Of a stretch of 52,046 nt of DNA, positions 1-51,221 are shown one piece after another (the first letter of the stretch is position 1; every line of letters starts with the position of its first letter). Where the stretch lies: NCBI GenBank assembly GCA_032718475.1, contig JAUCBJ010007922.1, positions 1-52,046 on the forward strand. Direction: 5' to 3'. Source of the DNA: Nemertoderma westbladi. Lineage: Eukaryota; Animalia; Xenacoelomorpha. A program made the position numbers and the translations under genes. The notes beneath the pieces are model-generated. The model had not been told where the DNA came from. It did not search any database and saw only the letters and a program-made list of their open reading frames with translations.

Positions 1-1
1 C

Positions 2-2188
2 CCAGTTGTCTGTCATAATTTTTTTTTTTATGATTCACATTTAATTTTACAAAAAGGGTTTGCCGGTAGTAAATATAAAAATTGGAACATTAAAACCATT
101 GCAAAAAATACTGAAAGATATATCTCACTCCGCATCGATATTCCAACGTCAGAAGCACTTAACGTGCTTGGTTATGCTATTCCAGAAAAGGACGTAAGAG
201 GGCTCCCAACCAGCAAATCAATAACTATACAGTTTATTGATTCATTCGCATTTATGGGATTTTCCCTTTCTGCTTTGGCTGGGTTTTTGACAAAAGATGT
301 GTCAGATTTAACAACCGTTATTCCGCACACCGTGAAGCAAATGAGAAAATTATATCCAAATGTTACCGACAAAATTTTACGTCGTAAGTCAGTTTTTCCT
401 TACGAATATGTCGATTCCTTAAGTAAATTGGAGGATACTAAATTACCACATCCAAAAGAGTTTTACAGCGAATTAACATTATCATCTATTAGCCCCGAAG
501 AATATACATTTGCACATCTTTCGTGGGGGCAATTTCAATGTAAGACACTTTTTGATTATTTGGAAGCTTACTTACATCTTGACGTTTTGCTGCTAGCCGA
601 TATTTTTGAAAATTTTCGTGCATATTGTACTAAACATTATTCGCTTGAGGTGTCGAACTATTACACGATGGCAGGGGTTAGTTGGGACGCGGCTTTGAGA
701 TTTTCCAAGTCACATATTCGTCTACTTGCAGACCATGAAATGTATTTAACATTCGAAAATTCCATTAGGGGTGGGGTTTCTTACACCAACCTTCATATGG
801 CAAATGCGAATATACCAGGCACAGAAACATACGACCCTAATAAACCTGAAGCTCATTTATATAATTTAGATTTCAACAGTTTATATAGCGGTTCTTTGTC
901 GGAGAAACTTCCTTATTCTGACTTTGAATGGTTGGATGTTGATAGTGTCGATATCATGAGTCTGGAAATTGACGATATATTTGGATACTTCGCAATTGTA
1001 GACCTTGAATACCCAATGTCTATTCATGATGCCACAGCTGAGCTTCCATTTGCACCGGAGCATATTAAACTCGATAGTAGGTATCTCAGCCCGCACATGA
1101 AAAGTCTTTGGCGACATTATAATGGTGATAAAATTTTCAATAGCCCAGCAAAAAAATTGATGTTAACCCAATTTGATAAGTATGAGTACGGCGTGCATCT
1201 AAAATTATTGCGCTTTTATATTCATCATGGTATGCGTTTGATTAAAGTTCATAAACTTATTAGATTTAAGCAAGGTTACATTTTTAAGGATTTTATTGAA
1301 TATAACACACACCAAAGAAAAATTGCGCGCAATGACTTTTATGATAAGTTTCACAAAGGAACAAATAACGCGCTTTTCGGGAAAAGCATGGAGAATATAC
1401 GGGACCGTGTCTCATTTCGCTTATGTAATTCAATCGAGAAATGTGACTTATTATTATCCAAGCCGAATCACGAAAATTTAATTATGTTCACTGATTCATT
1501 ATCAGGTCACGTCCTATCTAAGGCTGCGGTTTGCTTGCATAAACCTATTTTTTTAGGCCAAGCTGTGTTGGACTTGTCAAAGTTAGATTACTACACTTTT
1601 TTCTACGATAAATTAAAGCCCATGGAAGCCGAATTAAATTGTAGTATAAATTTGCTAGGTGGGGACACGGATTCTTTTTTTTTACAGTGTGTTGGTTTAT
1701 CCCAACACCAATTTTTATCTGCGTTACAATCAAAAAAAGTTTTAGACTGTTCAAATTACCCTATTACGCATCCGTTGTATACAGTAGAACAGAAAGGGAA
1801 ATATAGATATTTAAAGGATGAAGGGAAGTCTATCCCGTTTGACCAGGTTATTTTACTTAGACCAAAATGTTATAGCTTTCGTGGGGGGTCAGTTCCAAAA
1901 CGTGTCGCTAAAGGCGTAGGAAAAATGGTTATAAAAAAGAAACTCTCCCACGAATCATATTTAAAAGTATATAACGAGGTTAACGAGCATTACGAATACA
2001 GTCAAAGGTTTCAATCTAATTTACATAAAATATACACCGTTTCACAAAGAAAAAAATCGCTAACACTGTGGGAAGATAAAAGGTACTACACATCGACTAA
2101 TGAAAGTCTACCTTACGGTCATTATAAAACACATTTGGATCGTAAAGCGCCTGCCCCTAAGCTTTATATGCCGCCCATTATAGAATAG
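2..2188 (+). CDS. polB: Protein-primed family B DNA polymerase (5'-partial)
   Basis: Frame open from base 2 (PVVCHNFFFYDSHLILQKG = ExoII). ExoIII YLHLDV, motif A DFNSLYS, motif B KGTNNALFGK, motif C GGDTDS, LRPKCY, AKGV. Clearly homologous to 43940-46990. Confidence 0.96.
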   Translation, partial: PVVCHNFFFYDSHLILQKGFAGSKYKNWNIKTIAKNTERYISLRIDIPTSEALNVLGYAIPEKDVRGLPTSKSITIQFIDSFAFMGFSLSALAGFLTKDVSDLTTVIPHTVKQMRKLYPNVTDKILRRKSVFPYEYVDSLSKLEDTKLPHPKEFYSELTLSSISPEEYTFAHLSWGQFQCKTLFDYLEAYLHLDVLLLADIFENFRAYCTKHYSLEVSNYYTMAGVSWDAALRFSKSHIRLLADHEMYLTFENSIRGGVSYTNLHMANANIPGTETYDPNKPEAHLYNLDFNSLYSGSLSEKLPYSDFEWLDVDSVDIMSLEIDDIFGYFAIVDLEYPMSIHDATAELPFAPEHIKLDSRYLSPHMKSLWRHYNGDKIFNSPAKKLMLTQFDKYEYGVHLKLLRFYIHHGMRLIKVHKLIRFKQGYIFKDFIEYNTHQRKIARNDFYDKFHKGTNNALFGKSMENIRDRVSFRLCNSIEKCDLLLSKPNHENLIMFTDSLSGHVLSKAAVCLHKPIFLGQAVLDLSKLDYYTFFYDKLKPMEAELNCSINLLGGDTDSFFLQCVGLSQHQFLSALQSKKVLDCSNYPITHPLYTVEQKGKYRYLKDEGKSIPFDQVILLRPKCYSFRGGSVPKRVAKGVGKMVIKKKLSHESYLKVYNEVNEHYEYSQRFQSNLHKIYTVSQRKKSLTLWEDKRYYTSTNESLPYGHYKTHLDRKAPAPKLYMPPIIE

Positions 2189-2197
2189 TGGATTGCG

Positions 2198-2758
2198 ATG
2201 TCTTTTAGTATTGTCAACAGTAATATAAGTTTGAGGTTGGGTGATGGGTGCATATCATTCGATGTGCTGGCTAAACGAATTCGAAATGGAAAACTCATCT
2301 TAAAGCCTTACCAATATATCGCCAAAATTTGCGGATGGACGTGTCTCTTTTTCCCGAGCGGTAAGGTCACTGTACTCGGTAAATCACCTAAAATAAAAAA
2401 AATTATTAAGTATATATATAAGCATACTGATTATAAACTAACTTTTATTTCAATCAATAGCCAAACTTATATTATTAACAATCTAGACATAGACTATAGC
2501 AAATTAATGAAAACGGTTGGGTTTCATTTTTTAGATAATTATTATAATGTGGAGGTGAAATATGAGCCGGAGATATTTAATAATATTCTTGTGCAGTTTT
2601 ATCGTCGGGGTAAAACTAGTTCTAATATCATAACATTTTGCGTTTTTTACACACGAAATGTTGTGTGTATGGCAAGACCCGAGATATTTCGAGTATTTTT
2701 TCCAAAGTTTTTGAATTTTATCGGTAATTTAGATAGTCATTTAGGTAGAAATATTTAA
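2198..2758 (+). CDS. TATA-binding protein (TBP)-like protein
   Basis: 186 aa with TBP two-repeat signature: CLFFPSGKVTVLG (cf. TBP LIFxSGKxVxTG), KYEPEIF (cf. SYEPELF), FCVFYTRNVVC (second-repeat LIFxSGKIV). Positional homolog in P2. Confidence 0.75.
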   Translation: MSFSIVNSNISLRLGDGCISFDVLAKRIRNGKLILKPYQYIAKICGWTCLFFPSGKVTVLGKSPKIKKIIKYIYKHTDYKLTFISINSQTYIINNLDIDYSKLMKTVGFHFLDNYYNVEVKYEPEIFNNILVQFYRRGKTSSNIITFCVFYTRNVVCMARPEIFRVFFPKFLNFIGNLDSHLGRNI

Positions 2759-2797
2759 TTTTTTCATTTTTTGGTGTCAGTTTTAGGTTTGTCCGGT

Positions 2798-3490
2798 GGG
2801 ATCTCGTTAGGTTTTTAAATAAACGTGGATATTACCATTATTCACATTATATATATAACGTGTTTTATCGGTAGTCTTAGGTTGTCAAGGGTGCCGATTT
2901 CATTTCTGATGTCAGTTTTAAATTTACATAAATCTAGTCTATCTGTCTTCGGTTTGTCAGTCTTTCTGTCAGTCAGCCAGTCTGTCAAAACTTAAAAAAG
3001 TTTGAATTTTATTAGTAATTTGGGTAGTAATATTTAATTAGAAATTTCATAAAAATTTTTCGAAAAATTAAAATGTTCGTTTTTGAAAAATTTAAAAATT
3101 TTGAAAGTTTGCCCTTTAGGATCTCGTTTGGTTTTTAAATGCGGATATTATCATTGTTCCCTTGATATATATATATATATAATGTGTTTTATTGATGGTC
3201 TTGGGTTTTAGGGGGTGCCGATTTCATTTCCGATGTCAGTTTTTACATTTACATAAATCTAGTCTGTCTGTCTGTCGGTTTGTTAAAACTTAAAAAAGTT
3301 TGAATTTTATTAGTAATTTGGGTAGTAATATTTAATTAGAAATTTCATAAAATTTTCCGAAAAATTAAAAGTTTCATTTTTGAATAATTTCGAAATTTTG
3401 TAGGTTTGTCCTGTGGGATCTCGTTTGGTTTTTTAAACGTGGATTTGCGTTCTTAATTATTGATGTTAGGTTTTAAAGAGTGCCGGTTTC
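2798..3490. repeat. Imperfect tandem repeat, ~300-320 bp unit, ~2.3 copies
   Basis: GGATCTCGTT(A/T)GGTTTTT at ~2799, ~3119 and ~3416. The block AAAACTTAAAAAAGTTTGAATTTTATTAGTAATTTGGGTAGTAATATTTAATTAGAAATTTCATAAAA is identical at ~2987 and ~3285. Confidence 0.9.
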
Positions 3491-3617
3491 TATAATTGCT
3501 CGGTTTTATCGCGTGAAAAACCCCACCCACGCATATAATCGATACTATTTATAACGGTGGTGGTGTTTTATTACTTACTATTATTGTTCTCGTTTATATA
3601 AGTTATTAATATATGTA

Positions 3618-4079
3618 ATGAAATCACTCAAAGCTTTAATTAAACAATTTGACGGGGATTTAAAGTTCTTATCTAACGCCTCCCCCAACCGTAGAAAAAC
3701 CTTCTTACGTGTCGGCGGAACCGACGAACTTATAAGTTTTCTAATTAATATTATTCTAAATGTATTAAATGGTAACGTAAAAATTCCTGAGCAAACAATC
3801 GCGAGGTTAAAACGCCATAAAAAAACAATACGCGAGATCGCTAAAAAACCAAAAGCCAAGTATCCCATTCGAATTTATCGTAAACGATTGGTGCAAAGGG
3901 GCGGATTTATAAATCTACTAATCTCTGGTTTAATGAGTGGGCTTAACGCTTATCAGAAAATATCACCCATAATAACGGCTGTAAGAGGCAGAAAATTAGC
4001 CCAATCCCGCCGGGGGTATAGACCTACTACCTCTGGCACACGCGTCAACCGTCAAGTTTCTAGGTTTCCCATCTACTGA
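3618..4079 (+). CDS. Conserved Polinton basic protein with QxGG/F putative protease site and hydrophobic/amphipathic tail
   Basis: RKRLVQRGGFINLLISGL. Homolog in P2 (RKTLSQFGGFLPLLLPLL); shared ELI...N..LN.L.GN. Confidence 0.8.
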   Translation: MKSLKALIKQFDGDLKFLSNASPNRRKTFLRVGGTDELISFLINIILNVLNGNVKIPEQTIARLKRHKKTIREIAKKPKAKYPIRIYRKRLVQRGGFINLLISGLMSGLNAYQKISPIITAVRGRKLAQSRRGYRPTTSGTRVNRQVSRFPIY

Positions 4080-4096
4080 GTGGCTACCTATCAACA

Positions 4097-4807
4097 ATGT
4101 CCCGAGAGCCGACGATATCGCGGGAACCAATCACATCATACGACGCCTCTTTCAAGATGGGTTCGGCCATGATTATTGCGGGTCCAAGTTCTTCCGGAAA
4201 AACAGTGTTGGTATCAAAAATTGTAAAAAATAAAAATTTAGTTTTTGATATAACCCCGAAGCGTGTATTATTCTTTTATGGCGCCACCCCACCAGAATTC
4301 CCTGGTATAACACATCTATTCAAAGGTTTACCGCAAAAAATTAATTCTATTTTCCGCGAAAACGATCTAATTATTATAGACGACTTGTTAAGCGAAAGTA
4401 AGAGTGATGAGAGTTTGACAGAAAGCTTCACAAAAACCTGCCATCATACCTCCTGTTTCATTATCTATATAACACAAAATTTCTTCAGTAAAGGGGCGGA
4501 AACACGGACTAGAAGTCTAAATGCCCAATATTGTATTTTCACAAAAAATCCCCGCGACGCATGTCAAATAAGCTATATAGCGCGGCAAGTGTACCCAAAA
4601 AATAGCAATTTTATTGTTCAAGCATATAGTGACGCCACACAAAAACCATTCACACACCTTCTCTTAGACTTTCATCAAAAAACGGATGATAGTATAAGAG
4701 TTAGGGGTGATATTTTCAACCCATTAGGGCAAACTGTTTATCAACCCGCGAATATGAACTCTAACACACCTCACCAACGCCCCGAGGCCCAGTCTATACT
4801 GCAGTAG
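4097..4807 (+). CDS. A32/FtsK-HerA-family genome packaging ATPase
   Basis: Walker A GPSSSGKT, Walker B LIIIDD, ITQN, RTRSLNAQY, KNPRD. Confidence 0.95.
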   Translation: MSREPTISREPITSYDASFKMGSAMIIAGPSSSGKTVLVSKIVKNKNLVFDITPKRVLFFYGATPPEFPGITHLFKGLPQKINSIFRENDLIIIDDLLSESKSDESLTESFTKTCHHTSCFIIYITQNFFSKGAETRTRSLNAQYCIFTKNPRDACQISYIARQVYPKNSNFIVQAYSDATQKPFTHLLLDFHQKTDDSIRVRGDIFNPLGQTVYQPANMNSNTPHQRPEAQSILQ

Positions 4808-4927
4808 CGACGCCGTGCTAAAACCATTTTCACACATTTTTAGACTTTCACCGAAATTAGGTTATTATCGGTCCATGAACGTGAACTCTAGTATATAGTA
4901 TTAATATATTAATAATGATATATAACG

Positions 4928-5389
4928 ATGAAAAATAACGAGATTAGCCTCGGAAATTTTAAGAAGTTGTATCTAGTTTCTACTTTATTAACGGATACTT
5001 ATAATAATAATAATAAGAAAAGCAATAATATAATACAACCGCTAGATGGTGTGACAATTTCATCCCAGAAAGCCAAACGATTGTTGAGTTATTTGATGCG
5101 ATTCTCGCGAGACAGAGTGCGGTGGAACGATAATAATAAACTCTATATAGAAAATAAACTTATTCCCGGAGCAAATATTGATCATTTGATTGAATTGCTG
5201 ACTACAAAAAAAAATAAGAAAAACACCGAAATAATTCCAGGACAAGCAACATTTTTGGGGTTATTAAAACGATTAAGGATACCAAAACGATTAATTGGTC
5301 GCGGTTGGTTGAAACGGCAAAGGGTCCGCGTGACCCCTTCCAACACAAAACGCGCCGACGCGTGGAAACAATACGTAGGACTACAATAA
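4928..5389 (+). CDS. Conserved Polinton protein of unknown function
   Basis: N-terminal FKKLYLV shared with P2 ORF 49884. VRWNDNNKLYIENKLIPGANIDHLI resembles a motif recurrent in Maverick ORFs. Confidence 0.7.
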   Translation: MKNNEISLGNFKKLYLVSTLLTDTYNNNNKKSNNIIQPLDGVTISSQKAKRLLSYLMRFSRDRVRWNDNNKLYIENKLIPGANIDHLIELLTTKKNKKNTEIIPGQATFLGLLKRLRIPKRLIGRGWLKRQRVRVTPSNTKRADAWKQYVGLQ

Positions 5390-5440
5390 ATCGACGTGTG
5401 GAAACAAAGCGCAGGATAACATTAAAATAGTAGTAGTAGT

Positions 5441-5623
5441 ATGTTTTTTGAACGTTTCATATTAAGTATTAACTGTCATTGCAAGTGTTTTCTTCCACGA
5501 CACGACACAACCGATGGGGAGAATCGTAGAAAATCGAACAAACAAACGACTGGGAAGAATATATTACGATGTTTCAAATGCTGCCGGTTTCGCGAGCGTA
5601 ACCAAACTAGCGAAAGCCGCTAA
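5441..5623 (+). CDS. Small Cys-rich ORF overlapping integrase start
   Basis: MFFERFILSINCHCKC. Same position and similar N-terminus in P2 (MSWIKRLTVTCNLHCLC). Confidence 0.5.
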   Translation: MFFERFILSINCHCKCFLPRHDTTDGENRRKSNKQTTGKNILRCFKCCRFRERNQTSESR

Positions 5624-6599
5624 AGTTACGAGAAATCGCGCAAAAGAATGGTTGAGCTCCCAACGAACGTATTCCCTACACGCGCCGGCTAGGCGCCATT
5701 ACCCGACATCAAAAATCTTCACGAGCGGTATTGGTGATCTATACCAAGCGGATTTGTGCGATATGCAACCTTTTAGGGGTGAGAATAATGGCTACGGTTA
5801 CATACTTACTTGTATTGACTGTTTTAGTCGGAAGGCGTGGGCGTTGGGTCTAAAACGTAAAACAGGGGTCGAAATTAAAAGGGCCCTAGCCGCGATATTT
5901 AAAGATAGAAAACCTAAACGGCTAGCGGTTGATCAAGGAACTGAGTTTGTTAATAAATTGGTGAAAGATTTCTTACTGAACAATAATGTTCATTTTTATA
6001 CTTTAGTTAGCCAATTTAAAGCTAGTATCTGTGAAAGGCTGAATCGCACCCTCAAATCTCGCATGTACAGAATTTTCACGAGGAAACAGAATAGAGAATG
6101 GATGGGTATATTGCCAAAAATATTGGTTGCATATAATAATTCAATACATAGAACCATTGGTATGGCGCCAAACTCTGTCAATAAAAAGAATGAAACTGAC
6201 CTATTTTTAAAACTATATGGGAGTGTGGGTCATCCCAATAAAAGAAAACGCCGTGCGCAGCGTCGAGTTCATTTCAAGGTTGGTGATAAGGTGCGGCTGA
6301 GTTTAGCTAGAAAGCCATTTGACAAAGGTTATACACCTAATTATACTGTAGAAATTTTCAAAATCTACAGAATAAGATTGGATCGAGAGCCGTACCCTAT
6401 GTACGAAGTTGCGGACTCGAATGGGCGCGTTATAAAGGGGACATTTTATCGGCATGAAATCCAAAAGGTAATAGAACCATTTCAATTCCTACCAATTGAA
6501 AAAATAATTAAAGAAAAAGTAAATAAAAGCGGCAAAAAGCAATATTTGGTTAAATTTGTTGGTTTTGCGGCACATCGGTGGGTTGATCACGTACAATAA
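5514..6599 (+). CDS. int: Retroviral-like (rve) DDE integrase with C-terminal chromodomain-like region
   Basis: QADLCDM, CIDCFSRKAW, VDQGTEF, CERLNRTLK, YNNSIHRTIGMAP, FKVGDKVR; C-terminal IEKII...YLVKFVGF...W. Confidence 0.96.
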   Translation: MGRIVENRTNKRLGRIYYDVSNAAGFASVTKLAKAAKVTRNRAKEWLSSQRTYSLHAPARRHYPTSKIFTSGIGDLYQADLCDMQPFRGENNGYGYILTCIDCFSRKAWALGLKRKTGVEIKRALAAIFKDRKPKRLAVDQGTEFVNKLVKDFLLNNNVHFYTLVSQFKASICERLNRTLKSRMYRIFTRKQNREWMGILPKILVAYNNSIHRTIGMAPNSVNKKNETDLFLKLYGSVGHPNKRKRRAQRRVHFKVGDKVRLSLARKPFDKGYTPNYTVEIFKIYRIRLDREPYPMYEVADSNGRVIKGTFYRHEIQKVIEPFQFLPIEKIIKEKVNKSGKKQYLVKFVGFAAHRWVDHVQ

Positions 6600-6621
6600 T
6601 TAATTATATAATTATATTATT

Positions 6622-7506
6622 ATGGATTACTTACATTTAACGTTGACTTCCAACGCCAGTCTAGATAAATATCCTGATAACACTCCCAGCGATTTCACGA
6701 TTGAGTTGTCCAAACCTATCCCCGTCAGCACAGATTGGGTCGTGGGTCTAAAGGAAATACAGTATGTGTCGACCTATAGAAATATTGAACAAAGATCTGG
6801 AATTAGAATTGGTGAATATATGGTTGATGAGGATTTGGAATTTCATATAGCTCCATACAATCTTATAGAAATCGATTTTAATCTTGGTCTATATGCTTCT
6901 ATTGAGTCAATTTTAAACCATATTAGTGTTTATTTGAAAAATCCCGCAATATCCCACCACGGTTTCAAAGATGTTAAGTTTAACTACCAAAAACATACAT
7001 CAAAAATTCGTCTACATTGTGAGAAAGGCCGCTATTTCCAATTCTATGGAGATATAATAAATATTTTCGGGTTATCGAGTTTAAAAAATAATTTAATGGG
7101 CCTTGGGGCGCTTTGGGCAATACACTATAACAAAGATGATGATTTATTGAACTTAGGCTGTAAAGATACAAACAAAGCGGATGGAGTTGAATTCCCCGAA
7201 CCTTGCGATATAACGAGGGATAGACACACAATGTTTATATATACTGATATGATTGAATCTTCTCACGTAGGACATTCGATGGCGCCTCTTTTGCGGATAA
7301 TCCCTTTGAAATGGGAACCATACTCATTCATCAACCTGGAATTCAAAAACACACATTACAAACAATTAAGAAATAAAAAAGTGCTCGACACAATTAGTAT
7401 AACGCTTCGCGACCATAAAGGAAAGCATATAGTCTTTCATGGGGGTAAAACAATTTTAGTTCTAGAACTCAAAAAACAACAACGGCGACAAAAACTACAA
7501 GAATGA
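6622..7506 (+). CDS. Minor capsid (penton-like, single jelly-roll) protein 1
   Basis: LTSNASLDKYPDNTPSDFT..L, WVVGLKEI, MFIYTDMIE..VG....PLLRII, LRDHKG..I.F: typical Polinton minor capsid motifs. Confidence 0.88.
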   Translation: MDYLHLTLTSNASLDKYPDNTPSDFTIELSKPIPVSTDWVVGLKEIQYVSTYRNIEQRSGIRIGEYMVDEDLEFHIAPYNLIEIDFNLGLYASIESILNHISVYLKNPAISHHGFKDVKFNYQKHTSKIRLHCEKGRYFQFYGDIINIFGLSSLKNNLMGLGALWAIHYNKDDDLLNLGCKDTNKADGVEFPEPCDITRDRHTMFIYTDMIESSHVGHSMAPLLRIIPLKWEPYSFINLEFKNTHYKQLRNKKVLDTISITLRDHKGKHIVFHGGKTILVLELKKQQRRQKLQE

Positions 7507-8306
7507 ACAGTTATTACGTTGTACTACCCTCAAACGCAAACCCCATAGAATTCCCGCGTAATAGCGCCGCCGATTTCCAAACAAATTTGCAAATTCCTTT
7601 ACCTTTCGCTAAAGGGCAATGGTTAATAGGTTTAACCGGTATAACGTACGTATCTAGTATCAGGTATGACAATAGCGACATTTATATAAAGGCCATAAAA
7701 AATAAAAAAATGTTTACAAGAGATGTTACTCTCCCCGAAGGATCTTTCCTATCATTGGAAAGGATCATTGAGTACTTCAACAAAAGCCTTATTAAAGGCC
7801 AAATTAATATAATTGATAATACAGCACGCTCTGGTAATATAACCATACATTTTAAAGGTAAACAGTTGTCGATATTTGTCAGTAAACGTTTGGGTGGTTA
7901 CCTAGGATTAACAGAACACGAGGTTGATGGCAAAGGTTTTATGTGTGTGCAAAATGCTGCGGGGGATTATCACTTGCTAAGGATTGATTCGCGGAATAAT
8001 AAGTACGACTGCCATAAGCATCCTAATGCTGTCGAAATACTGGAACCCAACATAAATATACATATCAATTGCGTCGAACCTCAATTTGTAGACAATAGCG
8101 AATACCCTCTGTTGCGTAGCATACCCATAGAAGGGGAATATGGGCAAATTATTAGTCGTGAAGTTGAGGAAGTCTACTATAAAAAAGTTAATTCAACATC
8201 TAATTTACGTTATATACGAGTTCGATTGATTGGAGATTCCGGAAATTTGTTGCGCTTTCATTATGGAAATTCAATATTGACGCTTCATTTTATACGAATT
8301 GATTGA
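7503..8306 (+). CDS. Minor capsid (penton-like) protein 2, tandem paralog
   Basis: LPSNA..EFPRNSAADF.T.L, WLIGLTGI, CVEPQFV....PLLRSI, LTLHF; ATGA overlap with upstream paralog. Confidence 0.85.
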   Translation: MNSYYVVLPSNANPIEFPRNSAADFQTNLQIPLPFAKGQWLIGLTGITYVSSIRYDNSDIYIKAIKNKKMFTRDVTLPEGSFLSLERIIEYFNKSLIKGQINIIDNTARSGNITIHFKGKQLSIFVSKRLGGYLGLTEHEVDGKGFMCVQNAAGDYHLLRIDSRNNKYDCHKHPNAVEILEPNINIHINCVEPQFVDNSEYPLLRSIPIEGEYGQIISREVEEVYYKKVNSTSNLRYIRVRLIGDSGNLLRFHYGNSILTLHFIRID

Positions 8307-8380
8307 GATAGTCACAATTTAATCGATGTAAATTATTTATTATTTATTATTATCTGATTATCTGAAGTTATAGCGACTAT

Positions 8381-8977: not shown

Positions 8978-9238
8978 TGTATATATAATTAATTATTGCG
9001 TTATTATATGCTACTTATATTTGTAGATTACACATATACGTATGTAGTAAAGAATTATTATTATATGTTATAATAAATACTCCAGCGAAACTCGCGGTTG
9101 GTTATGGAAAATGGTTGTCGTCGAATTAATGTATATATAATTAATTATTGTGTTATTATATGCTACTTATATTTGTAGATTACACATATACGTATGTAGT
9201 AAAGAATTATTATTATTATATGTTATAATAAATACTCA
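8933..9238. repeat. Direct tandem duplication, ~152 bp x2
   Basis: GCGAAACTCGCGGTTGGTTATGG...AATAAATACTC at 8933 and 9085, nearly identical. Duplicates the ORF 3' end and the AATAAA signal. Confidence 0.95.
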
Positions 9239-9243
9239 TAATA

Positions 9244-9780: not shown

Positions 9781-11031
9781 ATGAGTAAATTAGAATTATC
9801 ATTATTCTCAAGTAAAACAAATCAGCGAGAATATACATCTTCACATTTTTCGGATATCTACCCGATTTCTACTCTTGACGCGAATGCCCGACAAATCGAG
9901 TTCTTTATACCCCAGTCAAATGTTCTATATACTGATTTAAAGAATTCGAAATTTCACATTAAATATAAAATTACATGGGATGGTAATAGGGCTAACGACG
10001 ATACAACCCTCCACCATCTTAATTACCCGGGTGGGTCACTATTTGAAAATTGTTCGTTATATTTAAATGAAAAGCTAGTTGAAACCTCGAATGGGTTCTA
10101 CGCCTATAAGTCTACGTTTCAGACATTACTGTTGACAGATGCTAACGAAAAACGCAGTATTTTAAGAGCTGGTGGGTATGAAGATACTGATAATAATCTA
10201 GGTGGGGTACCTGTCGCTACTGAGAATGACGTTCGCGGGAATTATGTTAAATTCGTTGTGGCCCCAATTTTTTTAGACCTGGCAAGCCAGGACAAATTAC
10301 TGCCGCCGGGAATTAACATTCGACTTCGTATAGACCGAGTATCGAATAATTTTTTTTTGAAAGTTGAACCCCCCGCAGGATTGGTAAACCCGAGAGTTGA
10401 AATCATGAATATTAATTTAAAAATAAAACGCCACAAGATTGATGCCGAGGTTATGCGCGCGCATTTGTTGGGGTCACAAAAAAATGACTTTATTTATAAC
10501 TTGTTAAAACAAGAAGTGAAAACCTTCACTATTGGTGGCGGGCAGTCCAGTTATACAGAATCGAACATAATCCAAGGAAAATTACCTAAGTATATTTTGG
10601 TTGGAATGCTTACCAACGCCAGCTTCAACGGGGAATTAAGCAGTAATCCGCTACATTTTAACCATTTCGGTTTAAATTATGCCGAACTAAACATCGACTC
10701 CCGTATTATACACGGATATCCATATCGCCCTAATTTTCTGGAAAACAATTTTATGTTGGAATTCGAAAGTTTAATGAACGTGTTCAAGAGCTTGAGTGGC
10801 GTATTTTGCTCGCTAACACCTGAACGGTTTCGTACCCAATTTCCTTTGATCGTATTCGATCTTACTGCGGGAGGCGACCAAAGCCATGAGATTCAACCTA
10901 GTATTCATACAAGCGGGCATTTGATTCTGAAATTTAGTAATGCACTAGATAACACTATTAACGTTATATTAATGGCAAGCTATGACGCTCTTCTATCTAT
11001 TTCGGAAGCCAAGGAAATAATAACTGAATAA
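9781..11031 (+). CDS. Major capsid protein (double jelly-roll, Polinton PY/hexon-like)
   Basis: 416 aa; ELSLF, IEFFIP...YTDL, SLF....LYLN, YAYK, QDKLLPPG, LPKYILVG, F.G....NP..F.HF, FDLT. Confidence 0.92.
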   Translation: MSKLELSLFSSKTNQREYTSSHFSDIYPISTLDANARQIEFFIPQSNVLYTDLKNSKFHIKYKITWDGNRANDDTTLHHLNYPGGSLFENCSLYLNEKLVETSNGFYAYKSTFQTLLLTDANEKRSILRAGGYEDTDNNLGGVPVATENDVRGNYVKFVVAPIFLDLASQDKLLPPGINIRLRIDRVSNNFFLKVEPPAGLVNPRVEIMNINLKIKRHKIDAEVMRAHLLGSQKNDFIYNLLKQEVKTFTIGGGQSSYTESNIIQGKLPKYILVGMLTNASFNGELSSNPLHFNHFGLNYAELNIDSRIIHGYPYRPNFLENNFMLEFESLMNVFKSLSGVFCSLTPERFRTQFPLIVFDLTAGGDQSHEIQPSIHTSGHLILKFSNALDNTINVILMASYDALLSISEAKEIITE

Positions 11032-42942: not shown

Positions 42943-43878
42943 ATGCCTATGTCTAGCAATAAAGTTAGCTGCCCCATCTGCGACAAAGAGATGCGGAGTG
43001 ATAATCTAAAATCACATATTAAAATTCATTTCGCGCAATATAGATGCGACTGTTGCCCGACTTGGTCTTCGGAAAAGAAGACGCTGGTTGGCCATCTTGT
43101 TTCGTGTCCTCAGGGGGGAACAGGATTTAGTTACGTAAACGAGCCAGCCGATTGCCGCTGCGGGGATTCGCTCACCCTGTCATCCTTTTCTGAGCATGAA
43201 TGCTATACTCGACTTTTTTCGCGGAAACGCAAAACTCCGACTACCTCCCACTCATCCCCCATCAACTCTACTCCAGAACAAGTCGGCGGCGGCGGCTCCA
43301 ATAATGAACCTTCAACTTCACGAGATTCTATTTCCCCAAACAATCCATTTCAACCCCCCTCCAACGGAAGCGCACACGGACGACTGTTTACCTATAACAA
43401 CGACCTCGCAGAAACAAGACTCGATGCTGAATTAACATTAAACGAAAATTTTCCACACATTCAAGAACACGTTAGTAGCCATTTACGTAGTGCCATGGGA
43501 ACTTTTTTAAGAGTCTGGCTTACAATCAACATCGTAATGGAGCGTGAAACGAGCGAGGGATTTCAAATTGAATCTTTCTGTTTTAAATCTAGCGGTAACA
43601 ATAATCAAATTCTAAATAATAGCGACTTTAATAACTGGTTTTCTAGCGCCGTCAATCGTATCGATCAACTGTTAAGCATGTTTCTCTGCCTCGGCTCGGG
43701 TTGGCGCATAATAGCCATCGAGCGAATAACTATTGAGATTGCGCGGTCCCAACGCAACCCCTATTTAAAGGGTCAAGGCTTCAATAATTCTAAATTATTA
43801 TTAAATAAAAAATGTACCGTAAGCGTAGACTGCCCGCTGGGGGAATGCTTTAAATACGCAGTAAGCCGCAAATTATAA
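42943..43878 (+). CDS. N-terminal part of pPolB polyprotein (C2H2 finger, terminal-protein-like region, start of OTU-like protease domain), frameshifted from downstream ORF
   Basis: CPICDKEMRSDNLKSHIKIH; GSGW; ECFKYAV. Continues in another frame from 43865 as AANYKK...RISTY...FDFSNLSFPV. Confidence 0.8.
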   Translation: MPMSSNKVSCPICDKEMRSDNLKSHIKIHFAQYRCDCCPTWSSEKKTLVGHLVSCPQGGTGFSYVNEPADCRCGDSLTLSSFSEHECYTRLFSRKRKTPTTSHSSPINSTPEQVGGGGSNNEPSTSRDSISPNNPFQPPSNGSAHGRLFTYNNDLAETRLDAELTLNENFPHIQEHVSSHLRSAMGTFLRVWLTINIVMERETSEGFQIESFCFKSSGNNNQILNNSDFNNWFSSAVNRIDQLLSMFLCLGSGWRIIAIERITIEIARSQRNPYLKGQGFNNSKLLLNKKCTVSVDCPLGECFKYAVSRKL

Positions 43879-43939
43879 GAAAATTGATAGAAAACAAAAT
43901 AATATCAAAAGAATTTCAACGTATACCCCTTTTCTAAAC

Positions 43940-46900
43940 ATGTTTGATTTTTCCAATTTAAGTTTCCCGGTGGACAGAGTAACTGGTATTCCCCAGTTTC
44001 TGAAAGCCAACCCTATATACTGTATAAACCTTCTTTATTGGAGTAATACGGAAGAACTCTCCATTCTAAGTCAACCAGATAGCGCGCACTGTTCCGGTAA
44101 AACTGTACTAAACTTATTATTTATCGAAGCCATAAGCAAAAACCCTGCCCACTACGTAGCTATTACTAACATAGATAGACTAATAAATTCAAAAGATTCA
44201 GACGGTAACAAGACGCACTGCGAACGCTGTCTCAGAGGCTTTTACACTGACAAATCACTGGGAGAACATCGAGAGCGCTGCTATACGGGTAAACGCCAAC
44301 TCGAGTATATGCCCGAAAATCTCTTGGTTAAATTTGACAGGTACGATAAGACTCTATCCCCGCCTTTCTGTATATACGCCGACATTGAAACTATTCTAGA
44401 ACCTACAAACAATATTAAACTCCCACAGAAACATATAGCTAGCGCGGCAGCCTTTTATACAGTACCAAATCAGAAATTAATTAACCCTCCTAAAACAGAT
44501 GTTCAAATTTTCCGCGACGATGGCAGTAACCACGTAATGCGCGACTTTCTAACCGCTATGGAAAGTCATTGTAGGGAGTTATACGATTGGTCCATTTCTA
44601 GTACAAACACACGCGCCCCCATGCAACTCACTACTAGCCAACAAACTGACTTTAATAACGCTACACAATGCTACGTCTGCAACTGTAATTTAACCCCCGA
44701 TTCTCATAATTTAAACCTCAATGACAATCTCAGCACCAAAGTCCGCGATCACGATCATTATAGCGGGGAGTATCGAGGAGCTGCTTGCGTCAGCTGCAAC
44801 AGGAAACTTTCCCTAAAACGGAATAATTTTTATATTATATTTCATAACTTGAGGAAATTCGATATGCATTTACTACTAAAAGAAGGAATGACCGATAGTT
44901 CTAGAACACACTGGAAAATGACTGTAATACCAAAAAACACCGAAACTTATATTCACCTTAAAGTTAGCTTTCCAATCGATCCGAGTACCCCAACAGCCAA
45001 CGCTAAAGAAAGTATCTCCATTAATTTTCTAGATTCCTATCAGTTTATGACTGCCAGCCTAGATAATCTTAGTAGCTATCTCACTAAAAATAACAGTAAC
45101 CTAGCAACAGCCATACCCCATACACTAGCTCAAATGACCCAACTCTATCCCAACATTAGCGATAACACAATAAAAAACAAGGGCATATTCCCATATTCCT
45201 ACATTCAAAATATTTCAAACCTACACGAAACTACACTCCCCCCAATAGAAAGCTTCTATAATGATCTCAAATTGGAACAATGTAGCGCAGAAAACTATCA
45301 GCGCGCGCTTACTACTTGGGATGAATTAAACTGCCTAACAATCTTCGACTATATGATTGGCTATTTGGTTCTAGACGTTACCCTATTGGCTGATACTTTC
45401 GAGCAGTTCCGATCCCTCTGTCTTACTAATTATGGACTCGAGCCCATAATGTACTTCACTGCCCCTGGATTAACTTACGACGCGGCATTGAAATTCACGC
45501 AATCAGAAATTCAATTACTATCAAACGCTTCCATCTACTCGGACTTTGAAACAAATATTAGGGGTGGTCTAGTTTTCTTGAATACACATTCCGTAGACGC
45601 AAATATTCCCGATAAACCCGACTACGACTCCAGTCTCCCCGAGAAATATCTAATTCCCATCGATGCGAATAACCTTTACGGCTGCGCCCTGAGCCAGAAA
45701 CTTCCCTACGCTAATATTAAACTCGTAACTACCCCCATAGACCTAGCTACAGTAGACGCGAGTGGGGCCACTGGTTATTATTGCATAGTTGATCTACATT
45801 ATCCGAAAGAAATTCATGATTTGACCGCCGATCTGCCTCTAGGAGCGGAGAAGATGTCAGTCCCTAAATCCTTTCTTAGCGAATACATGGAAGATCTTTG
45901 GGAGCATTACAATCTCACCGATACGGCTACCTGTAGACCATACAACGATACCTGTACTAAGCTACTACTACATCAGTTTAATAAGGTTGAATACGGTATC
46001 CATATTAAGCTACTTCAGCTCTATTTGAAGCTCGGTCTTAAACTTACACAAGTACATAGGGTCTACTCTTTCTCACAAAAATATATTTTCAAGGACTACA
46101 TTAGTTTTAATACGAATAAAAGACAGTCGGCAAATAACCCATTCGAGATCCTATTTTATAAGTTGATGAACAATGCCTTGTATGGGAAATGCCTCCAAAA
46201 GGTTAGAGACCGCGTTTCTTTCAGGTTATGCAATAGCGACGAACAATGCGATTTGCTCTTAGCCAAGCCCAACCACGAATCGTTTGTTGTCTTTACCCCC
46301 AACTTGAGTGGACATACTTTCACTAAAGAGGCTGTTTGCCTAAATCAGGGCGTGTTCATCGGTTGCACTATACTAGATCTATCTAAGCTACAGATGTACG
46401 ACCTATTTTACAACAAACTGAAGCCTCTAGAACAAAAACTGGATTGCCAGATTCGCTGTCTAGCCGGTGACACGGATTCTCTAATGCTAAGCGTAACTAA
46501 TGCACCACAGCTAACCTTTCTACGGGCAATGTTTGAGGGTGGTTTCCTAGATACTTCCAACTACAGTACAACACATCCACTCTATACCATTAAACACAAA
46601 GCGGCTCTCGGCTTCGTAAAAGATGAGAGCTGCGGTTTGCAGTATAAACAGTGGGTTTTCCTTAAACCAAAGGTCTACAGTTTTCAATCCTATGATGCCC
46701 CAATCAAGAAAACCGCCAAAGGTGTATCTAGATCGGTTGTCGCTAAGCAACTAACACACGAGGATTATGCAGACTGTTTTGAAAACGAGGCAATGCTCTT
46801 CCGCTATAACTCTACCTTCACTTCTAGAAAGCATCAAATTTTTACTGGTCATGTCTATAAGAAGGCACTAACGCTCTGGGATACGAAATCATATTGGAGT

Positions 46901-46990
46901 AGTAAATATAGCAGCAAACCATACGGGCACTATAGCACTAAGCTTGTTAGACCGGCGAAACGAGTAGTAATCCCCCCTACTAGAATTTAA
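43940..46990 (+). CDS. polB: Protein-primed family B DNA polymerase with EndoVII-like zinc insert
   Basis: CERC..H..C finger, YADIE, CYVC...VRDHDH.SGEYRGAAC..CN, FHNLRKFD, FLDSY, DANNLYG, KLMNNALYGK, AGDTDS, AKGV. Frame open from 43865. Confidence 0.96.
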   Translation: MFDFSNLSFPVDRVTGIPQFLKANPIYCINLLYWSNTEELSILSQPDSAHCSGKTVLNLLFIEAISKNPAHYVAITNIDRLINSKDSDGNKTHCERCLRGFYTDKSLGEHRERCYTGKRQLEYMPENLLVKFDRYDKTLSPPFCIYADIETILEPTNNIKLPQKHIASAAAFYTVPNQKLINPPKTDVQIFRDDGSNHVMRDFLTAMESHCRELYDWSISSTNTRAPMQLTTSQQTDFNNATQCYVCNCNLTPDSHNLNLNDNLSTKVRDHDHYSGEYRGAACVSCNRKLSLKRNNFYIIFHNLRKFDMHLLLKEGMTDSSRTHWKMTVIPKNTETYIHLKVSFPIDPSTPTANAKESISINFLDSYQFMTASLDNLSSYLTKNNSNLATAIPHTLAQMTQLYPNISDNTIKNKGIFPYSYIQNISNLHETTLPPIESFYNDLKLEQCSAENYQRALTTWDELNCLTIFDYMIGYLVLDVTLLADTFEQFRSLCLTNYGLEPIMYFTAPGLTYDAALKFTQSEIQLLSNASIYSDFETNIRGGLVFLNTHSVDANIPDKPDYDSSLPEKYLIPIDANNLYGCALSQKLPYANIKLVTTPIDLATVDASGATGYYCIVDLHYPKEIHDLTADLPLGAEKMSVPKSFLSEYMEDLWEHYNLTDTATCRPYNDTCTKLLLHQFNKVEYGIHIKLLQLYLKLGLKLTQVHRVYSFSQKYIFKDYISFNTNKRQSANNPFEILFYKLMNNALYGKCLQKVRDRVSFRLCNSDEQCDLLLAKPNHESFVVFTPNLSGHTFTKEAVCLNQGVFIGCTILDLSKLQMYDLFYNKLKPLEQKLDCQIRCLAGDTDSLMLSVTNAPQLTFLRAMFEGGFLDTSNYSTTHPLYTIKHKAALGFVKDESCGLQYKQWVFLKPKVYSFQSYDAPIKKTAKGVSRSVVAKQLTHEDYADCFENEAMLFRYNSTFTSRKHQIFTGHVYKKALTLWDTKSYWSSKYSSKPYGHYSTKLVRPAKRVVIPPTRI

Positions 46991-47013
46991 TTTAATTTTT
47001 CTAGAATAAGAAA

Positions 47014-47520
47014 TTGAACAACAAAATAGAAATAACCAATAAACAGTTTACCGGAAAAAACATTGCCAAATTTGAACTAGATAAAATTTCACAGCAAATT
47101 ATAGGTCAAAGTAGCTTAAAACCAAACATGTTTATCTACAAAGGTGACGATTCAACTATAATGCTATTTCCCAGCGGCGCAGTAACAATTGTAGGCCTGT
47201 GCAATAATTTAGCTAGTGAATTGCTTTATTTAAAACAAACTATCGATATGCAATTACAAAATTTGAAACTTAATACCGAAACACGAACTATTATTTTTCC
47301 AAGTGTTAATTTTAAATTATTAATGAAAAAATGTGGACATCATACAATTAATAATAAAGCAATATTTATTAGCTATACCCCCGAATTATTTTGCGCGATT
47401 AGAATATATATAGGACGTGCATATTTCAGTGTATTTCATAGTAATAAAATCGTTTCCATGTGTCCTGCCGGTGAATTCCCCGGATCATTATCTATTTTAC
47501 AAACTTTATTATTAAATTAG
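47014..47520 (+). CDS. TBP-like protein (no ATG at the N-terminus; possibly spliced)
   Basis: IMLFPSGAVTIVG, SYTPELF, FSVFHSNKIV; homolog of 2198-2758. Frame opens right after TTTTCTAG at 47004. Confidence 0.72.
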   Translation: MNNKIEITNKQFTGKNIAKFELDKISQQIIGQSSLKPNMFIYKGDDSTIMLFPSGAVTIVGLCNNLASELLYLKQTIDMQLQNLKLNTETRTIIFPSVNFKLLMKKCGHHTINNKAIFISYTPELFCAIRIYIGRAYFSVFHSNKIVSMCPAGEFPGSLSILQTLLLN

Positions 47521-48620: not shown

Positions 48621-48803
48621 TATTTGTGTTAAATTATAAATTTATGTTACAATTATTATCTATAATATAAAAAACAGAAATATTCGAGTTATATTGCATA
48701 TGAGCAATAAATTACAATATACGAGCTGTTAATTTTTCTTATTCTTACTAAACAAATGTTAATCTTCAAGTCAGTCCTTATTGGATCGAACTACAGTATA
48801 ATA

Positions 48804-49430
48804 ATGAGTGGGCCTATAGATGTACGGTTTAGGTTTGGTGCCACAATGTTAATGGCTGGCCCTTCTGGCAGTGGTAAAACTACATATTTGGAGCAAATAT
48901 TACAAAATAGCAAGCAAATTTTTGACGCGCAACCATCAGAGATTATTTGGATATATGGGCAAACTAAACCGATTGTGAAAGGTGTCAATATTACTACCTT
49001 AAATGAAATTCCGGAACACTTTAATCAAAATGTAAAAAGACAGAGTGTGATTATATTCGATGATTTAATGTCTGAGCTAGAGAATTCAAAGCAAACAACA
49101 ATTTTATTTACCAAAGTCGCGCGCCATTCGCATTCTTTTGTTATTTTTTTAACGCAAAACCTATTTCAGAAAGGAGGGGAAGCACGTACTCGATCTATTA
49201 ACTCTACCTATTTTTTACTATTTAAGAATCCGCGTGATTTAACGCAGATCAGAACCTTAGCCTATCAGATGAACCCAAATAATCCAAAATTTTTAATTAG
49301 CGCTTACCACGACGTTACACAGCAAGCATTCAATCCGCTTTTAATCGACTTTCATCAACAGACTCCAGAAAATCTGCGGATAAGGGCTAATCTATTCACG
49401 ATGGAACATTGTGTTTATCAGCCTTTGTAA
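48804..49430 (+). CDS. A32/FtsK-HerA-family packaging ATPase
   Basis: GPSGSGKT, IIFDD, LTQN, RTRSINSTY, KNPRD. Start at 48804 by alignment with P1 (48756 also possible). Confidence 0.95.
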   Translation: MSGPIDVRFRFGATMLMAGPSGSGKTTYLEQILQNSKQIFDAQPSEIIWIYGQTKPIVKGVNITTLNEIPEHFNQNVKRQSVIIFDDLMSELENSKQTTILFTKVARHSHSFVIFLTQNLFQKGGEARTRSINSTYFLLFKNPRDLTQIRTLAYQMNPNNPKFLISAYHDVTQQAFNPLLIDFHQQTPENLRIRANLFTMEHCVYQPL

Positions 49431-49542: not shown

Positions 49543-49884
49543 ATGGATCTCAATATACGAAAACATAGGAAAGAATTAACATTCCTGAGAAATAGTAGCG
49601 CGGTTGCAAGAGGCTTTTTTATACGACATAAAGCAAGCAACGAGTTGATTCGCCTTCTTGTTAATGTGACTCTAAATACTCTATTCGGAAATTTGCATAT
49701 CAATAATCGAATTTTAAAGAAATTAGCACCCTTTAAAAAGAATATGCGTAAACTGAAAGCAAAAAAATCATTAACCTTTCAACGTAAAACACTATCTCAA
49801 TTTGGCGGATTTTTGCCACTTTTATTGCCCCTGTTGCTTGGTGCCACAGAAATCGCAACAACCGTAGCTACCGCGCTTACGTGA
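49543..49884 (+). CDS. Conserved basic protein with QxGG/F site (homolog of 3618-4079)
   Basis: ELIRLLVNVTLNTLFGN; RKTLSQFGGFLPLLLPLLLG; ATG at 49543. Confidence 0.8.
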   Translation: MDLNIRKHRKELTFLRNSSAVARGFFIRHKASNELIRLLVNVTLNTLFGNLHINNRILKKLAPFKKNMRKLKAKKSLTFQRKTLSQFGGFLPLLLPLLLGATEIATTVATALT

Positions 49885-50081: not shown

Positions 50082-50296
50082 TGTCATGGATAAAAAGATT
50101 AACGGTAACCTGTAACCTTCATTGTCTATGTAATTCTAGAACAGTTAGTAATAGCTATGACGAGCAAGATTGTGGACCGCAAGTTACGCAAAATTTACTA
50201 CAGCGTTTCAAATGTTGCGGGATTTTCAAGTCAAAAAAAACTAAGTACTGCAACAAAAATCAAACCAGCTATAGTCAAAAAATGGTTGCAAGGTGA
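50081..50296 (+). CDS. Small Cys-rich ORF overlapping integrase start
   Basis: TAATG stop/start overlap; CNLHCLC; positional homolog of 5441-5623. Confidence 0.5.
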   Translation: MSWIKRLTVTCNLHCLCNSRTVSNSYDEQDCGPQVTQNLLQRFKCCGIFKSKKTKYCNKNQTSYSQKMVAR

Positions 50297-51221
50297 ATCT
50301 AATTACACTCTACATGCACCGGCGCGAAAACATTTCCCTACGAGTCGCATGTATTTTTATGGTATAAGCGACACAATTCAAGCGGATCTGATTGATATGC
50401 AACAACATCGGGAAACAAATTCTGATTATGGATATATTTTGACCGCAATAAACTGCTTTAGTAAGCGTGGATGGGCTTTACCCCTGAAACGAAAAACGGG
50501 AAAAGAAATTAAGCGTGTTCTAGAAACAATATTTAATGATGAAACACCTAGAAATTTGTGTACAGATCAAGGCTTGGAATTTGATAATAAACTGGTTTTG
50601 GATTATTTGAAACTAAAAAAGGTGAGGTACTATACAACCCGGTCTCAATTTAAGGCTGCAATCTGCGAAAGATTTAATAGAACTCTGAAAACGAAAATGT
50701 TCAAAATATTTAATCGACGCAAAAATTTTAAATGGCTTAAAATATTGCCGGAAATACTAGTAGCCTATAATAAATCGAAACATCGTTCAATTGGTATGGC
50801 ACCGTTACATGTAAATAAAACAAATGAGGATAAAGTACGTAAAAAACTATATGGAGACCTCTCTAAAATTAAAGTTTCCCCTCCAGTCTTTAAAATAGGA
50901 GACAGTGTGAGGTTAAATATTTCTAAAAATAAATTTGAGAAAGGTTATATTCAAGGTTGGACAACGGAAATTTTCACAATCGCGAGGATAAGAATGGATA
51001 GATTCCCGATCGCAATGTATCATGTAAAAGACGCCGTGGGCCGTGAGATTGAGGGAAGCTTCTACCCAGAAGAAATTCAGAGAGTTCAGCAAAAGAGCAA
51101 CATATTAGCAATCGATAACATAGTAAAATCGAGAAACAGAGGAGCCGAGCTGGAATATCTTGTTAAATTTAAAGGTTATAAGCGCGCAACCTGGATAAAA
51201 CAGTCTCAACTACGGAAATAG
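50157..51221 (+). CDS. int: rve DDE integrase with chromodomain-like C-terminus
   Basis: QADLIDM, TDQGLEF, CERFNRTLK, YNKSKHRSIGMAP, YLVKFKGY...TWI. Confidence 0.96.
   Translation: MTSKIVDRKLRKIYYSVSNVAGFSSQKKLSTATKIKPAIVKKWLQGESNYTLHAPARKHFPTSRMYFYGISDTIQADLIDMQQHRETNSDYGYILTAINCFSKRGWALPLKRKTGKEIKRVLETIFNDETPRNLCTDQGLEFDNKLVLDYLKLKKVRYYTTRSQFKAAICERFNRTLKTKMFKIFNRRKNFKWLKILPEILVAYNKSKHRSIGMAPLHVNKTNEDKVRKKLYGDLSKIKVSPPVFKIGDSVRLNISKNKFEKGYIQGWTTEIFTIARIRMDRFPIAMYHVKDAVGREIEGSFYPEEIQRVQQKSNILAIDNIVKSRNRGAELEYLVKFKGYKRATWIKQSQLRK

Follow-up and report, generated by a model that had tools for sequence, protein, structure and literature searches.

Viral TATA-binding proteins (TBPs) are well described in nucleocytoplasmic large DNA viruses (NCLDVs) and in the beta- and gammaherpesviruses (PMC12529657, PMC7221094). 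According to Ravarani et al. 2020 (PMC7221094), a TFIIB-like protein is encoded by almost all of the TBP-bearing viruses studied, and conservation of the Glu that contacts TFIIB is about 40%; Polintons are not mentioned in the available text. KSHV ORF24 mimics TBP, differs from it by polar changes at L114, V122, T124 and L205, and recognises a TATT box, which is non-canonical, on late genes (PMC12529657).

A Polinton TBP is barely described in print. In Starrett et al. 2021 (PMC8502044), TBP is an abbreviation in the legend of Fig. 5, which concerns MELD viruses with an adintovirus-like PolB, in the section on datasets from non-animal eukaryotes. The part of the supplement that was searched holds no TBP, and it is possible that the label also stands in the animal maps of that paper. 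No published study of a Polinton TBP or of its box was found in the literature searched, which covered few subscription papers. An earlier reading of the DNA studied here, made from the letters alone and called below the sequence-only reading, had noted TBP homologs in large DNA viruses and placed TBP outside the classical Polinton core genes. The gene is less new than that reading took it to be, given the label in the legend of Starrett et al. and the viral TBPs already described. In the literature surveyed, the timing of capsid and packaging genes in Polintons, which carry no RNA polymerase, is not settled.

Two Polinton-like elements in the window

The window, by which we mean the whole stretch of 52,046 nt that was analysed, contains two Polinton-like elements, each cut by a window end: P1, at about 1-13,000, and P2, at about 41,000-52,046. 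The sequence between them is host-like; it includes one ORF with C2H2 zinc fingers and one retroelement ORF with DUF1759, which would point to an animal host. The features of P1 and P2 are as follows.

2..2188, forward: P1 protein-primed PolB, 3' part, with the 5' end beyond the window; 44% identical to P2 PolB over 730 aa
2198..2758, forward: P1 TBP-like ORF, 186 aa, intact, ATG start; Phe equivalents, YEPEIF loop, basic N-lobe helix
2759..3617, no strand: AT-rich non-coding stretch with imperfect repeats, between P1 TBP and orfA, read from the sequence
3618..4079, forward: P1 orfA, a small conserved ORF; 36% identical to P2 orfA
4097..4807, forward: P1 packaging ATPase (A32/FtsK-like); P-loop GPSSSGKT; 41% identical to P2 ATPase
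4928..5389, forward: P1 ORF between ATPase and integrase; no family match (Pfam, PHROG)
5514..6599, forward: P1 rve integrase with a chromo-like C-terminal part; PF00665, E 1e-10
6622..8306, forward: two paralogous P1 ORFs (6622-7506 and 7503-8306), 25% identical to each other and 30% to P2 51225-52046; likely minor capsid (penton-like) proteins, a label taken from position
9781..11031, forward: P1 putative major capsid protein (MCP); 24-27% identical to the ORFs in the same position of relatives L005, L024, L030, L053 and L054
11096..11539, forward: P1 putative maturation cysteine protease (adenain-like); weak match to the ASFV S273R protease, E 0.016; Josephin, E 2.6e-4
42943..46990, forward: P2 PolB in two overlapping frames (42943-43878 and 43865-46990); PF03175, E 5.6e-18
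46999..47005, forward: TTCTAGA, preceded by a pyrimidine run and resembling a splice acceptor; it recurs 13-23 nt 5' of the P2 polB, orfA and integrase starts
47014..47520, forward: P2 TBP-like ORF of 168 aa, its first codon TTG; YTPELF loop
47625..48602, no strand: tandem repeat of about 200 nt, 4.9 copies, between P2 TBP and ATPase
48756..49430, forward: P2 packaging ATPase; Pox_A32, E 2.5e-6
49543..49884, forward: P2 orfA homolog; 36% identical to P1 orfA
50157..51221, forward: P2 rve integrase; PF00665, E 3.3e-6; 51% identical to P1 integrase
51225..52046, forward: P2 minor-capsid-like ORF, running off the window; 30% identical to P1 6622-7506

The Polinton context proposed in the sequence-only reading was borne out, with PolB, integrase and ATPase in the window and core genes in 52 of the 78 loci of relatives described below. 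Every P1 core ORF within the window is open. In P2 the polB frame is split near 43865-43878, such that residues 265-390 of the L024 PolB correspond to one frame and residues 391-1378 to the next. Several parts gave no family match: the P1 PolB fragment by itself in the Pfam scan, and P1 orfA and the ORFs of 6622-8306 against Pfam and PHROG. A PHROG scan of 12 proteins returned no match and an Rfam scan of the window no family, and the list of ORFs has none of at least 80 aa inside 2759..3617. Going by Polinton anatomy, orfA may be a virion core or membrane-active protein. For hexon, penton and adenain, the scans gave weak matches only: the S273R match at E 0.016 and, in a relative, a Capsid_N match at E 0.007 to the L005 ORF equivalent to the putative P1 MCP.

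Some further features were seen in and around the two elements. ACTACT at 13556-13561, after short GC-rich repeats, could be the right terminus of P1, whose left end lies beyond the window; Polinton termini are AGT-type ends. A 152-nt tandem duplication (8933-9237, 96% match) overlaps the 3' end of the ORF at 8381-8977 and the region upstream of the ORF at 9244. That first ORF and those at L024:6594-7058, L030:2078-3037 and L056:9591-10055 begin D-F/Y-x-G/Y...KE, without a Pfam match, a start which we take to resemble a DEDD exonuclease-like fold. Before P2 polB there is a tandem array at 41601-42418 (433-nt unit, 1.9 copies). In the intervening DNA, an 857-aa ORF (17361-19934) encodes many C2H2 zinc fingers and includes a 27-nt tandem repeat (24.8 copies, 17664-18333). 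Inverted repeats lie on either side of it, at 15844-16014 and at 20713-20879, and the whole may be a non-autonomous element with a zinc-finger gene. The 1443-aa ORF at 25395-29726 contains DUF1759, presumably the gag region of a BEL/Pao-type element, and two-copy arrays of 286-290 nt at 23162-23745 and 36607-37186 are possibly LTR parts.

TBP-like ORFs behind polB

TBP-like ORFs with named repeat motifs had been claimed directly after polB in both elements, and they are present there. In P1 the ORF begins 9 nt after the polB stop (2188) and has the motifs LFFPSGKVTVLG, YEPEIF and VFYTRNVV; in P2 it begins 23 nt after the polB stop (46990) and has MLFPSGAVTIVG, YTPELF and VFHSNKIV. The P2 ORF had been given a start at 47014, which must be corrected: the codon there is TTG, and the first in-frame ATG is codon 39, at 47128. 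Since it has no 5' ATG, the P2 ORF either begins at a non-AUG codon, receives a start through splicing from another exon, or has decayed. With the split polB also in view, P2 may be a partly decayed copy.

The P1 and P2 TBP proteins are 28% identical over 139 aa (E 3e-14). This is the lowest value among six shared genes, the others being minor-capsid-like (30%), orfA (36%), ATPase (41%), PolB (44%) and integrase (51%). At the DNA level the sole stretch shared by P1 and P2 is 211 nt of integrase, at 67%.

Evidence for the TBP fold

The TBP fold claimed from the motifs was upheld by several lines of evidence. Pfam TBP (PF00352) was the top family for both ORFs, with scores of 19.0 bits for P1 and 20.4 bits for P2, which are under the 22.9-bit gathering cutoff. 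In the ESM Atlas both proteins fell to TBP clusters at 0.95, with 29 of 30 matches; the recognition scores of 1849 and 1813 are under the guide value of 2300 and are weak if taken alone. A HMMER profile of P1 and P2, run unindexed against 1.84 billion proteins, gave six matches, all six of them above the Pfam TBP cutoff, and a profile of these eight sequences run against the PDB gave 35 sequences, all TBP chains or TBP fusions. A single-sequence search of the PDB and the two-sequence profile found no TBP there, and word-indexed homolog searches with P1 and with P1 plus P2 found nothing.

AlphaFold2 was used on P1. With an alignment of 64 rows the model reached pLDDT 91.3 and pTM 0.82, and residues 1-181 of 186 were modelled as TBP core; the alignment is composed of TBP homologs, which biases the model to the TBP fold. 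From the single sequence, pLDDT was 37 and there was no fold match. Foldseek with the P1 model placed TBPs in the top rows (best E 6.5e-10, TM 0.62-0.71), and VIA-align against TBP gave Z 15.4 and rmsd 2.5-2.8 A over 164-165 residues, the best non-TBP Z being 7.9. The viral structure library BFVD returned NCLDV TBP-like proteins. The model also has an additional predicted strand in the C-lobe. P1 is predicted from this model to adopt a two-lobed TBP saddle, and P2, by homology to P1, would be assigned the same fold. The alignment is TBP-biased, but the evidence obtained without a model agrees with the fold assignment, and we regard the TBP fold as close to certain.

A TBP family in related Polintons

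From JGI metagenomes, 78 loci were obtained by scanning with 32 aligned relatives. A match to a Polinton core gene of the window elements (PolB, ATPase, integrase, capsid or protease) was found in 52 of them, and the other 26 loci are 1-5 kb long. The ATPase gene lay on the TBP strand at most 2 kb downstream in 43 of 47 loci, and at most 300 nt downstream in 32. PolB was found in eight loci, in four of them upstream on the same strand at 1.5-5.6 kb and in the other four downstream on the opposite strand. Conserved polB adjacency had been a main point of the sequence-only reading; it is true of P1 and P2 and was not seen in the family, where, of 50 related loci whose upstream sequence exceeds 400 nt, none had the end of polB within 400 nt of TBP. 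Direct polB adjacency is a trait of P1 and P2 only, and the rule in the family is TBP-ATPase linkage.

The family is under purifying selection. Among the TBPs of the relatives the median dN/dS was 0.19 for the 48 of 61 pairs kept; the pairs are non-independent, and 13 were dropped, four as saturated and nine with dS below 0.05 (these including values of 1.11, 0.52 and 0.38). Between P1 and P2, identities are enriched in family-conserved columns (16/30, vs 22/122 elsewhere; Fisher p 2e-4). Both results agree with the long-term selection that had been proposed from the divergence of the two ORFs. A tree built from 63 proteins, with no host or NCLDV TBP among them, groups P1 with P2 (96/90) on long branches of 2.06 and 1.69, a grouping that may be long-branch attraction. 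The pair lies on the Polinton TBP side and is separated (100/97) from P0007, L078 and the six archaeal TBPs. The window proteins are a more diverged branch of the Polinton TBP family.

IMG/VR scans with P0008, P1 PolB, A4, P0007 and an ATPase alignment gave no confirmed locus, and a TBP match was absent from all 13 of the partial Polinton contigs taken from IMG/VR. No Pfam match to TFIIB or to RNA polymerase was obtained among 23 window ORFs and 36 further ORFs, 35 of the latter from six relatives; the window elements are incomplete and many of the ORFs have no family match.

The relatives vary in ways of their own. L078:1300-1815 is a Polinton-like locus with a near-canonical TBP (NIV motifs, V71, V122, N159) and no ATAAAC, and is maybe an independent or more recent capture. 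A subgroup in L042-L072 (e.g., L053:2175-2621 and L056:2420-2869) encodes mini-TBPs of 144-165 aa that are missing most of the second helix of the N-lobe. Beside the TBP gene in L005, L006, L024, L030 and L056 are phospholipase A2-like, KilA-N/DUF3627, RING finger, ubiquitin-conjugating enzyme and C2H2 genes.

Residue anatomy

Residues are given in yeast numbering, taken from Table 1 of PMC12529657 and mapped through archaeal TBP. Counts are for 64 relatives, 12 of 76 locus proteins having been dropped as partial, frameshifted or duplicate; L076 and L077 had no profile match. N69, F116, G125, E188, F190 and F207 are retained in P1, P2 and 63-64 of the 64 relatives, and the P1 equivalents of F116, F190 and F207 are F52, F127 and F150. 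The DNA-intercalating Phe positions, which the sequence-only reading had singled out, are kept in three cases of four, in P1 and P2 as in all 64 relatives. The fourth, F99, is lost: no Phe is at this position in either register, and in the P1 model a tight KP turn, with a predicted strand on either side, takes the place of the F99 stirrup.

Of the minor-groove set N69, T124, N159 and T215, N69 alone is retained. The substitutions are V71 to N/Q, T124 to L/V (M in the relatives), N159 to S/T, V161 to T and T215 to M, and P191 is also changed vs cellular TBP. Two positions of the DNA face separate the window proteins from the family. V122 is Arg in 63/64 relatives and Thr in both window proteins (T58 in P1, T58 in P2), and L205 is Asn in 62/64 relatives, C148 in P1 and S139 in P2. 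The Gly210 and Gly216 equivalents, present in 64/64 relatives, are lost in P1 and P2 as well. Both ORFs are divergent TBPs that fail several defining features of cellular TBP.

The acidic loop that contacts TFIIB (human E284/E286) has both residues in P1 (E123, E125) and one in P2 (T122, E124). Among the relatives it is kept in 59/64 (E186) and 64/64, figures that are partly circular, since one of three search patterns contained YEPELF. The N-lobe helix of P1 is basic, with 7 Lys/Arg per 20 residues, in the register of yeast R137/K138/R141/K145 as judged by eye from the alignment; P2 and five other non-archaeal relatives that were compared are without this basic helix. It may echo the TFIIA, Mot1 and TAF1 patch of PMC7221094, or it may reflect AT-rich codons (GC 0.31).

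A putative promoter box in the relatives

In four long relatives, ATAAAC was the top 6-mer or the core of the top 7-mer upstream of ORFs (family-wise p 0.003-0.007, 300 shuffles). It was found upstream of the ATPase in 45/47 relatives, of the integrase in 17/21, of the MCP in 5/5 and of the TBP in 3/62, compared with a background of 8/89 windows within integrase genes. It lies on the coding strand, 10-83 nt (mostly 35-75) 5' of the start codons. Over the 78 TBP loci there were 357 copies on the TBP strand vs 87 on the other, where 179 and 152 were expected. Thirteen IMG/VR Polinton contigs without a TBP match, which are partial and from another Polinton lineage, had 50 vs 63 copies (63 and 48 expected), that is, no bias.

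Neither window element has such a box. ATAAAC was upstream of none of the five window ATPase, integrase and MCP genes, and its strand counts were without bias, 11/9 in P1 and 11/16 in P2. ATAAAC was not enriched in the window, nor were YATAAAC with one mismatch, TATAWAW and TATTAA (p 0.12-0.94 for TATA-like and one-mismatch patterns). No upstream word was significant in P1, the best being TGAACGT, before 3/12 starts, with a family-wise p of 0.078. The sequence-only reading had suggested a switch for AT-rich late promoters. The strand-biased ATAAAC before the ATPase, integrase and capsid genes of the relatives speaks, if indirectly, for that suggestion, and the absence of the box from the window, along with the lack of a significant P1 motif, speaks against it. 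The ATAAAC box and the DNA-face Arg and Asn (122/205) are missing together in P1, P2 and L078, a co-loss that represents at most two independent lineages, on long branches.

As a separate observation, TRAACGT, a word picked post hoc, occurs in P1 seven times on the forward strand (2820, 3434, 4876, 5449, 7883, 9713, 10775) and not at all on the reverse. It stands at -52 to -68 before P1 orfB, integrase and MCP; it is a possible variant of the family box and is not significant after correction.

The sole enriched word in P2 was TTCTAGA, 13-23 nt before 4/6 starts, including that of TBP, and after pyrimidine-rich runs (family-wise p 0.002, 500 shuffles). TTCTAG(A) sites are at 42930, 46999, 49530 and 50134 in P2 and at 4058, 4886 and 7460 in P1, and TCTAG is found before 3/12 P1 starts. 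In its letters the P2 word looks like a splice acceptor and not like a TATA box, and the sites could serve an adenovirus-like late transcript as alternative 3' splice acceptors, or be used in trans-splicing. A heat-shock element was considered and rejected, as there are two units only and these are 13-23 nt from start codons. Among the relatives an acceptor-like motif was found before TBP in 2/64, vs 3.3 expected, and is not a family trait. A sequencing run of uncertain type (X1) had low-depth pieces near-identical to P1, non-coding parts included, and these did not cover the TBP gene.

Proposed function

Our preferred reading, to which we give about an even chance, is that the TBP is an element-specific late-promoter factor that uses host Pol II. 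This late-promoter function is drawn from the relatives and from the analogy with KSHV ORF24 (PMC12529657). The TBP core gene, directly behind polB, would be expressed early along with PolB. Its product would bind a non-canonical AT-rich site by means of the three Phe and a more polar DNA face, presumably with altered preference, and would recruit host TFIIB through the YEPE loop, of which P1 has both Glu and P2 one. Host TFIIB and RNA polymerase II would then be loaded on the packaging, integrase and capsid genes. P1 and P2 lack the R122/N205 residues and ATAAAC, and they would therefore read another, less uniform site. By this analogy, the Polinton TBP would most likely work like a late TBP mimic of the herpesvirus type, without being a member of that family.

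A bolder form of this reading is possible, and we consider it rather doubtful. A widespread group of animal Polintons would run the smallest known viral late-gene switch, in which a bare TBP of 145-186 aa, as the sole viral factor, reads a private box and brings in host TFIIB and Pol II. Box and DNA face would co-evolve, and the window elements would be a branch in which both were rewired, R122/N205 and ATAAAC having been lost, with a TRAACGT-like site in P1 and a splice-based output in P2. If true, a one-protein TBP switch with its own box, that is, one small protein and a six-base site, would answer the question of timing for a large group. It would also be a third route to a viral TBP, besides those of the NCLDVs, with their own TFIIB, and the herpesviruses, with a large multi-protein complex. 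What the window itself adds is a diverged branch that is missing the family box together with two DNA-face residues. P1 and P2 are natural variants in both respects, and a comparison of their specificity with that of a relative would bear on whether the protein reads the box. A compact TBP with altered specificity could also be an orthogonal transcription tool.

Four other readings were weighed against the late-promoter factor. The gene might be a remnant under relaxed selection, in which case an ancestral TBP-box switch would have been lost, the late genes would be spliced from a single promoter, or a few, driven by the host, and the protein would be drifting. The long branches of both proteins, the loss of the two Gly equivalents that all 64 relatives have, the absence of ATAAAC from the window, the acceptor-like TTCTAG before 4/6 P2 starts and TCTAG before 3/12 P1 starts, and the state of P2, with no 5' ATG and a split polB, all fit a remnant. 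We nevertheless hold a remnant to be unlikely, given that both frames are open for 168-186 codons while the DNA of the two elements cannot be aligned with each other, that P1/P2 identities cluster in family-conserved columns and that the P1 core ORFs in the window are all open.

It is quite unlikely, in our judgement, that the protein serves as a decoy or competitor, binding up host TFIIB, Mot1, NC2, TFIIA or TAF1 and thereby damping host transcription or shielding host TBP on element promoters. P1 does have both acidic stirrup residues and the basic N-lobe helix, which are partner surfaces in PMC7221094. However, that helix is missing in P2 and the five other non-archaeal relatives and could come from AT-rich codon use, the DNA face carries the best-retained residues (three Phe and N69), and the family box points to the reading of DNA.

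The saddle could instead bend DNA for replication, integration or packaging, at terminal repeats or adjoining repeat arrays, and have no part in transcription. The adjoining polB, the repeat-rich non-coding stretches after the gene in both elements and the linkage to the packaging ATPase in relatives would be in keeping with such a role. We judge it decidedly unlikely, as the box of the relatives is in promoter position, before start codons and on the coding strand, and the TFIIB loop is retained. Redirection of Pol III or Pol I (via Brf1/Brf2, which the same C-lobe Glu residues contact; PMC7221094) or of host genes, instead of Pol II on element genes, is very improbable, since the boxed genes are long protein-coding ORFs and no Rfam family was found in the window.

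Comparison with known systems

The late-promoter reading can be set beside five kinds of described system. The alpha adintoviruses/Polintons share with the window elements the PF03175 PolB, the rve integrase, the A32/FtsK-like ATPase and putative protease and capsid genes. TBP is missing from the shared adintovirus genes named in section 3.1 of PMC8502044, whereas the window elements carry it. The MELD viruses of the same paper resemble P1 and P2 in that a Polinton-type element with PolB carries a TBP-like gene. Their TBP is a label without analysis in the available text, whereas the gene described here belongs to a family in alpha-type elements, with its residue anatomy, selection, and a box in relatives.

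Cellular TBPs, both eukaryotic and archaeal, have the same predicted fold, and the equivalents of N69, F116, F190, F207 and E188 are retained in the window TBPs. Identity to cellular TBP is about 20%, however, V71, V122, T124, N159, V161, P191, L205 and T215 are changed, and the F99 stirrup is lost. The NCLDV TBPs are likewise a divergent viral form of the fold, and the Atlas and Foldseek neighbours of the window proteins include TBPs of Nucleocytoviricota. They come with a viral TFIIB (PMC7221094), whereas the ORFs scanned here gave no TFIIB match.

The beta- and gammaherpesvirus vTBPs, with KSHV ORF24 as the example, are like the Polinton protein in being a viral TBP fold whose DNA face is more polar, and ORF24 works with host Pol II on late genes behind the box TATTWAA (PMC12529657). 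ORF24 is large, has five viral partners and binds Pol II through its N-terminal domain, whereas the Polinton protein is a bare core of 145-186 aa. ORF24 retains all four Phe and is without the acidic residues that bind TFIIB; the Polinton protein, in contrast, is without F99 and has mostly kept the acidic loop. A dedicated late-gene box, which is a feature of the herpesvirus vTBPs, has a possible counterpart in the ATAAAC of the Polinton relatives; no such box was found in the two window elements.
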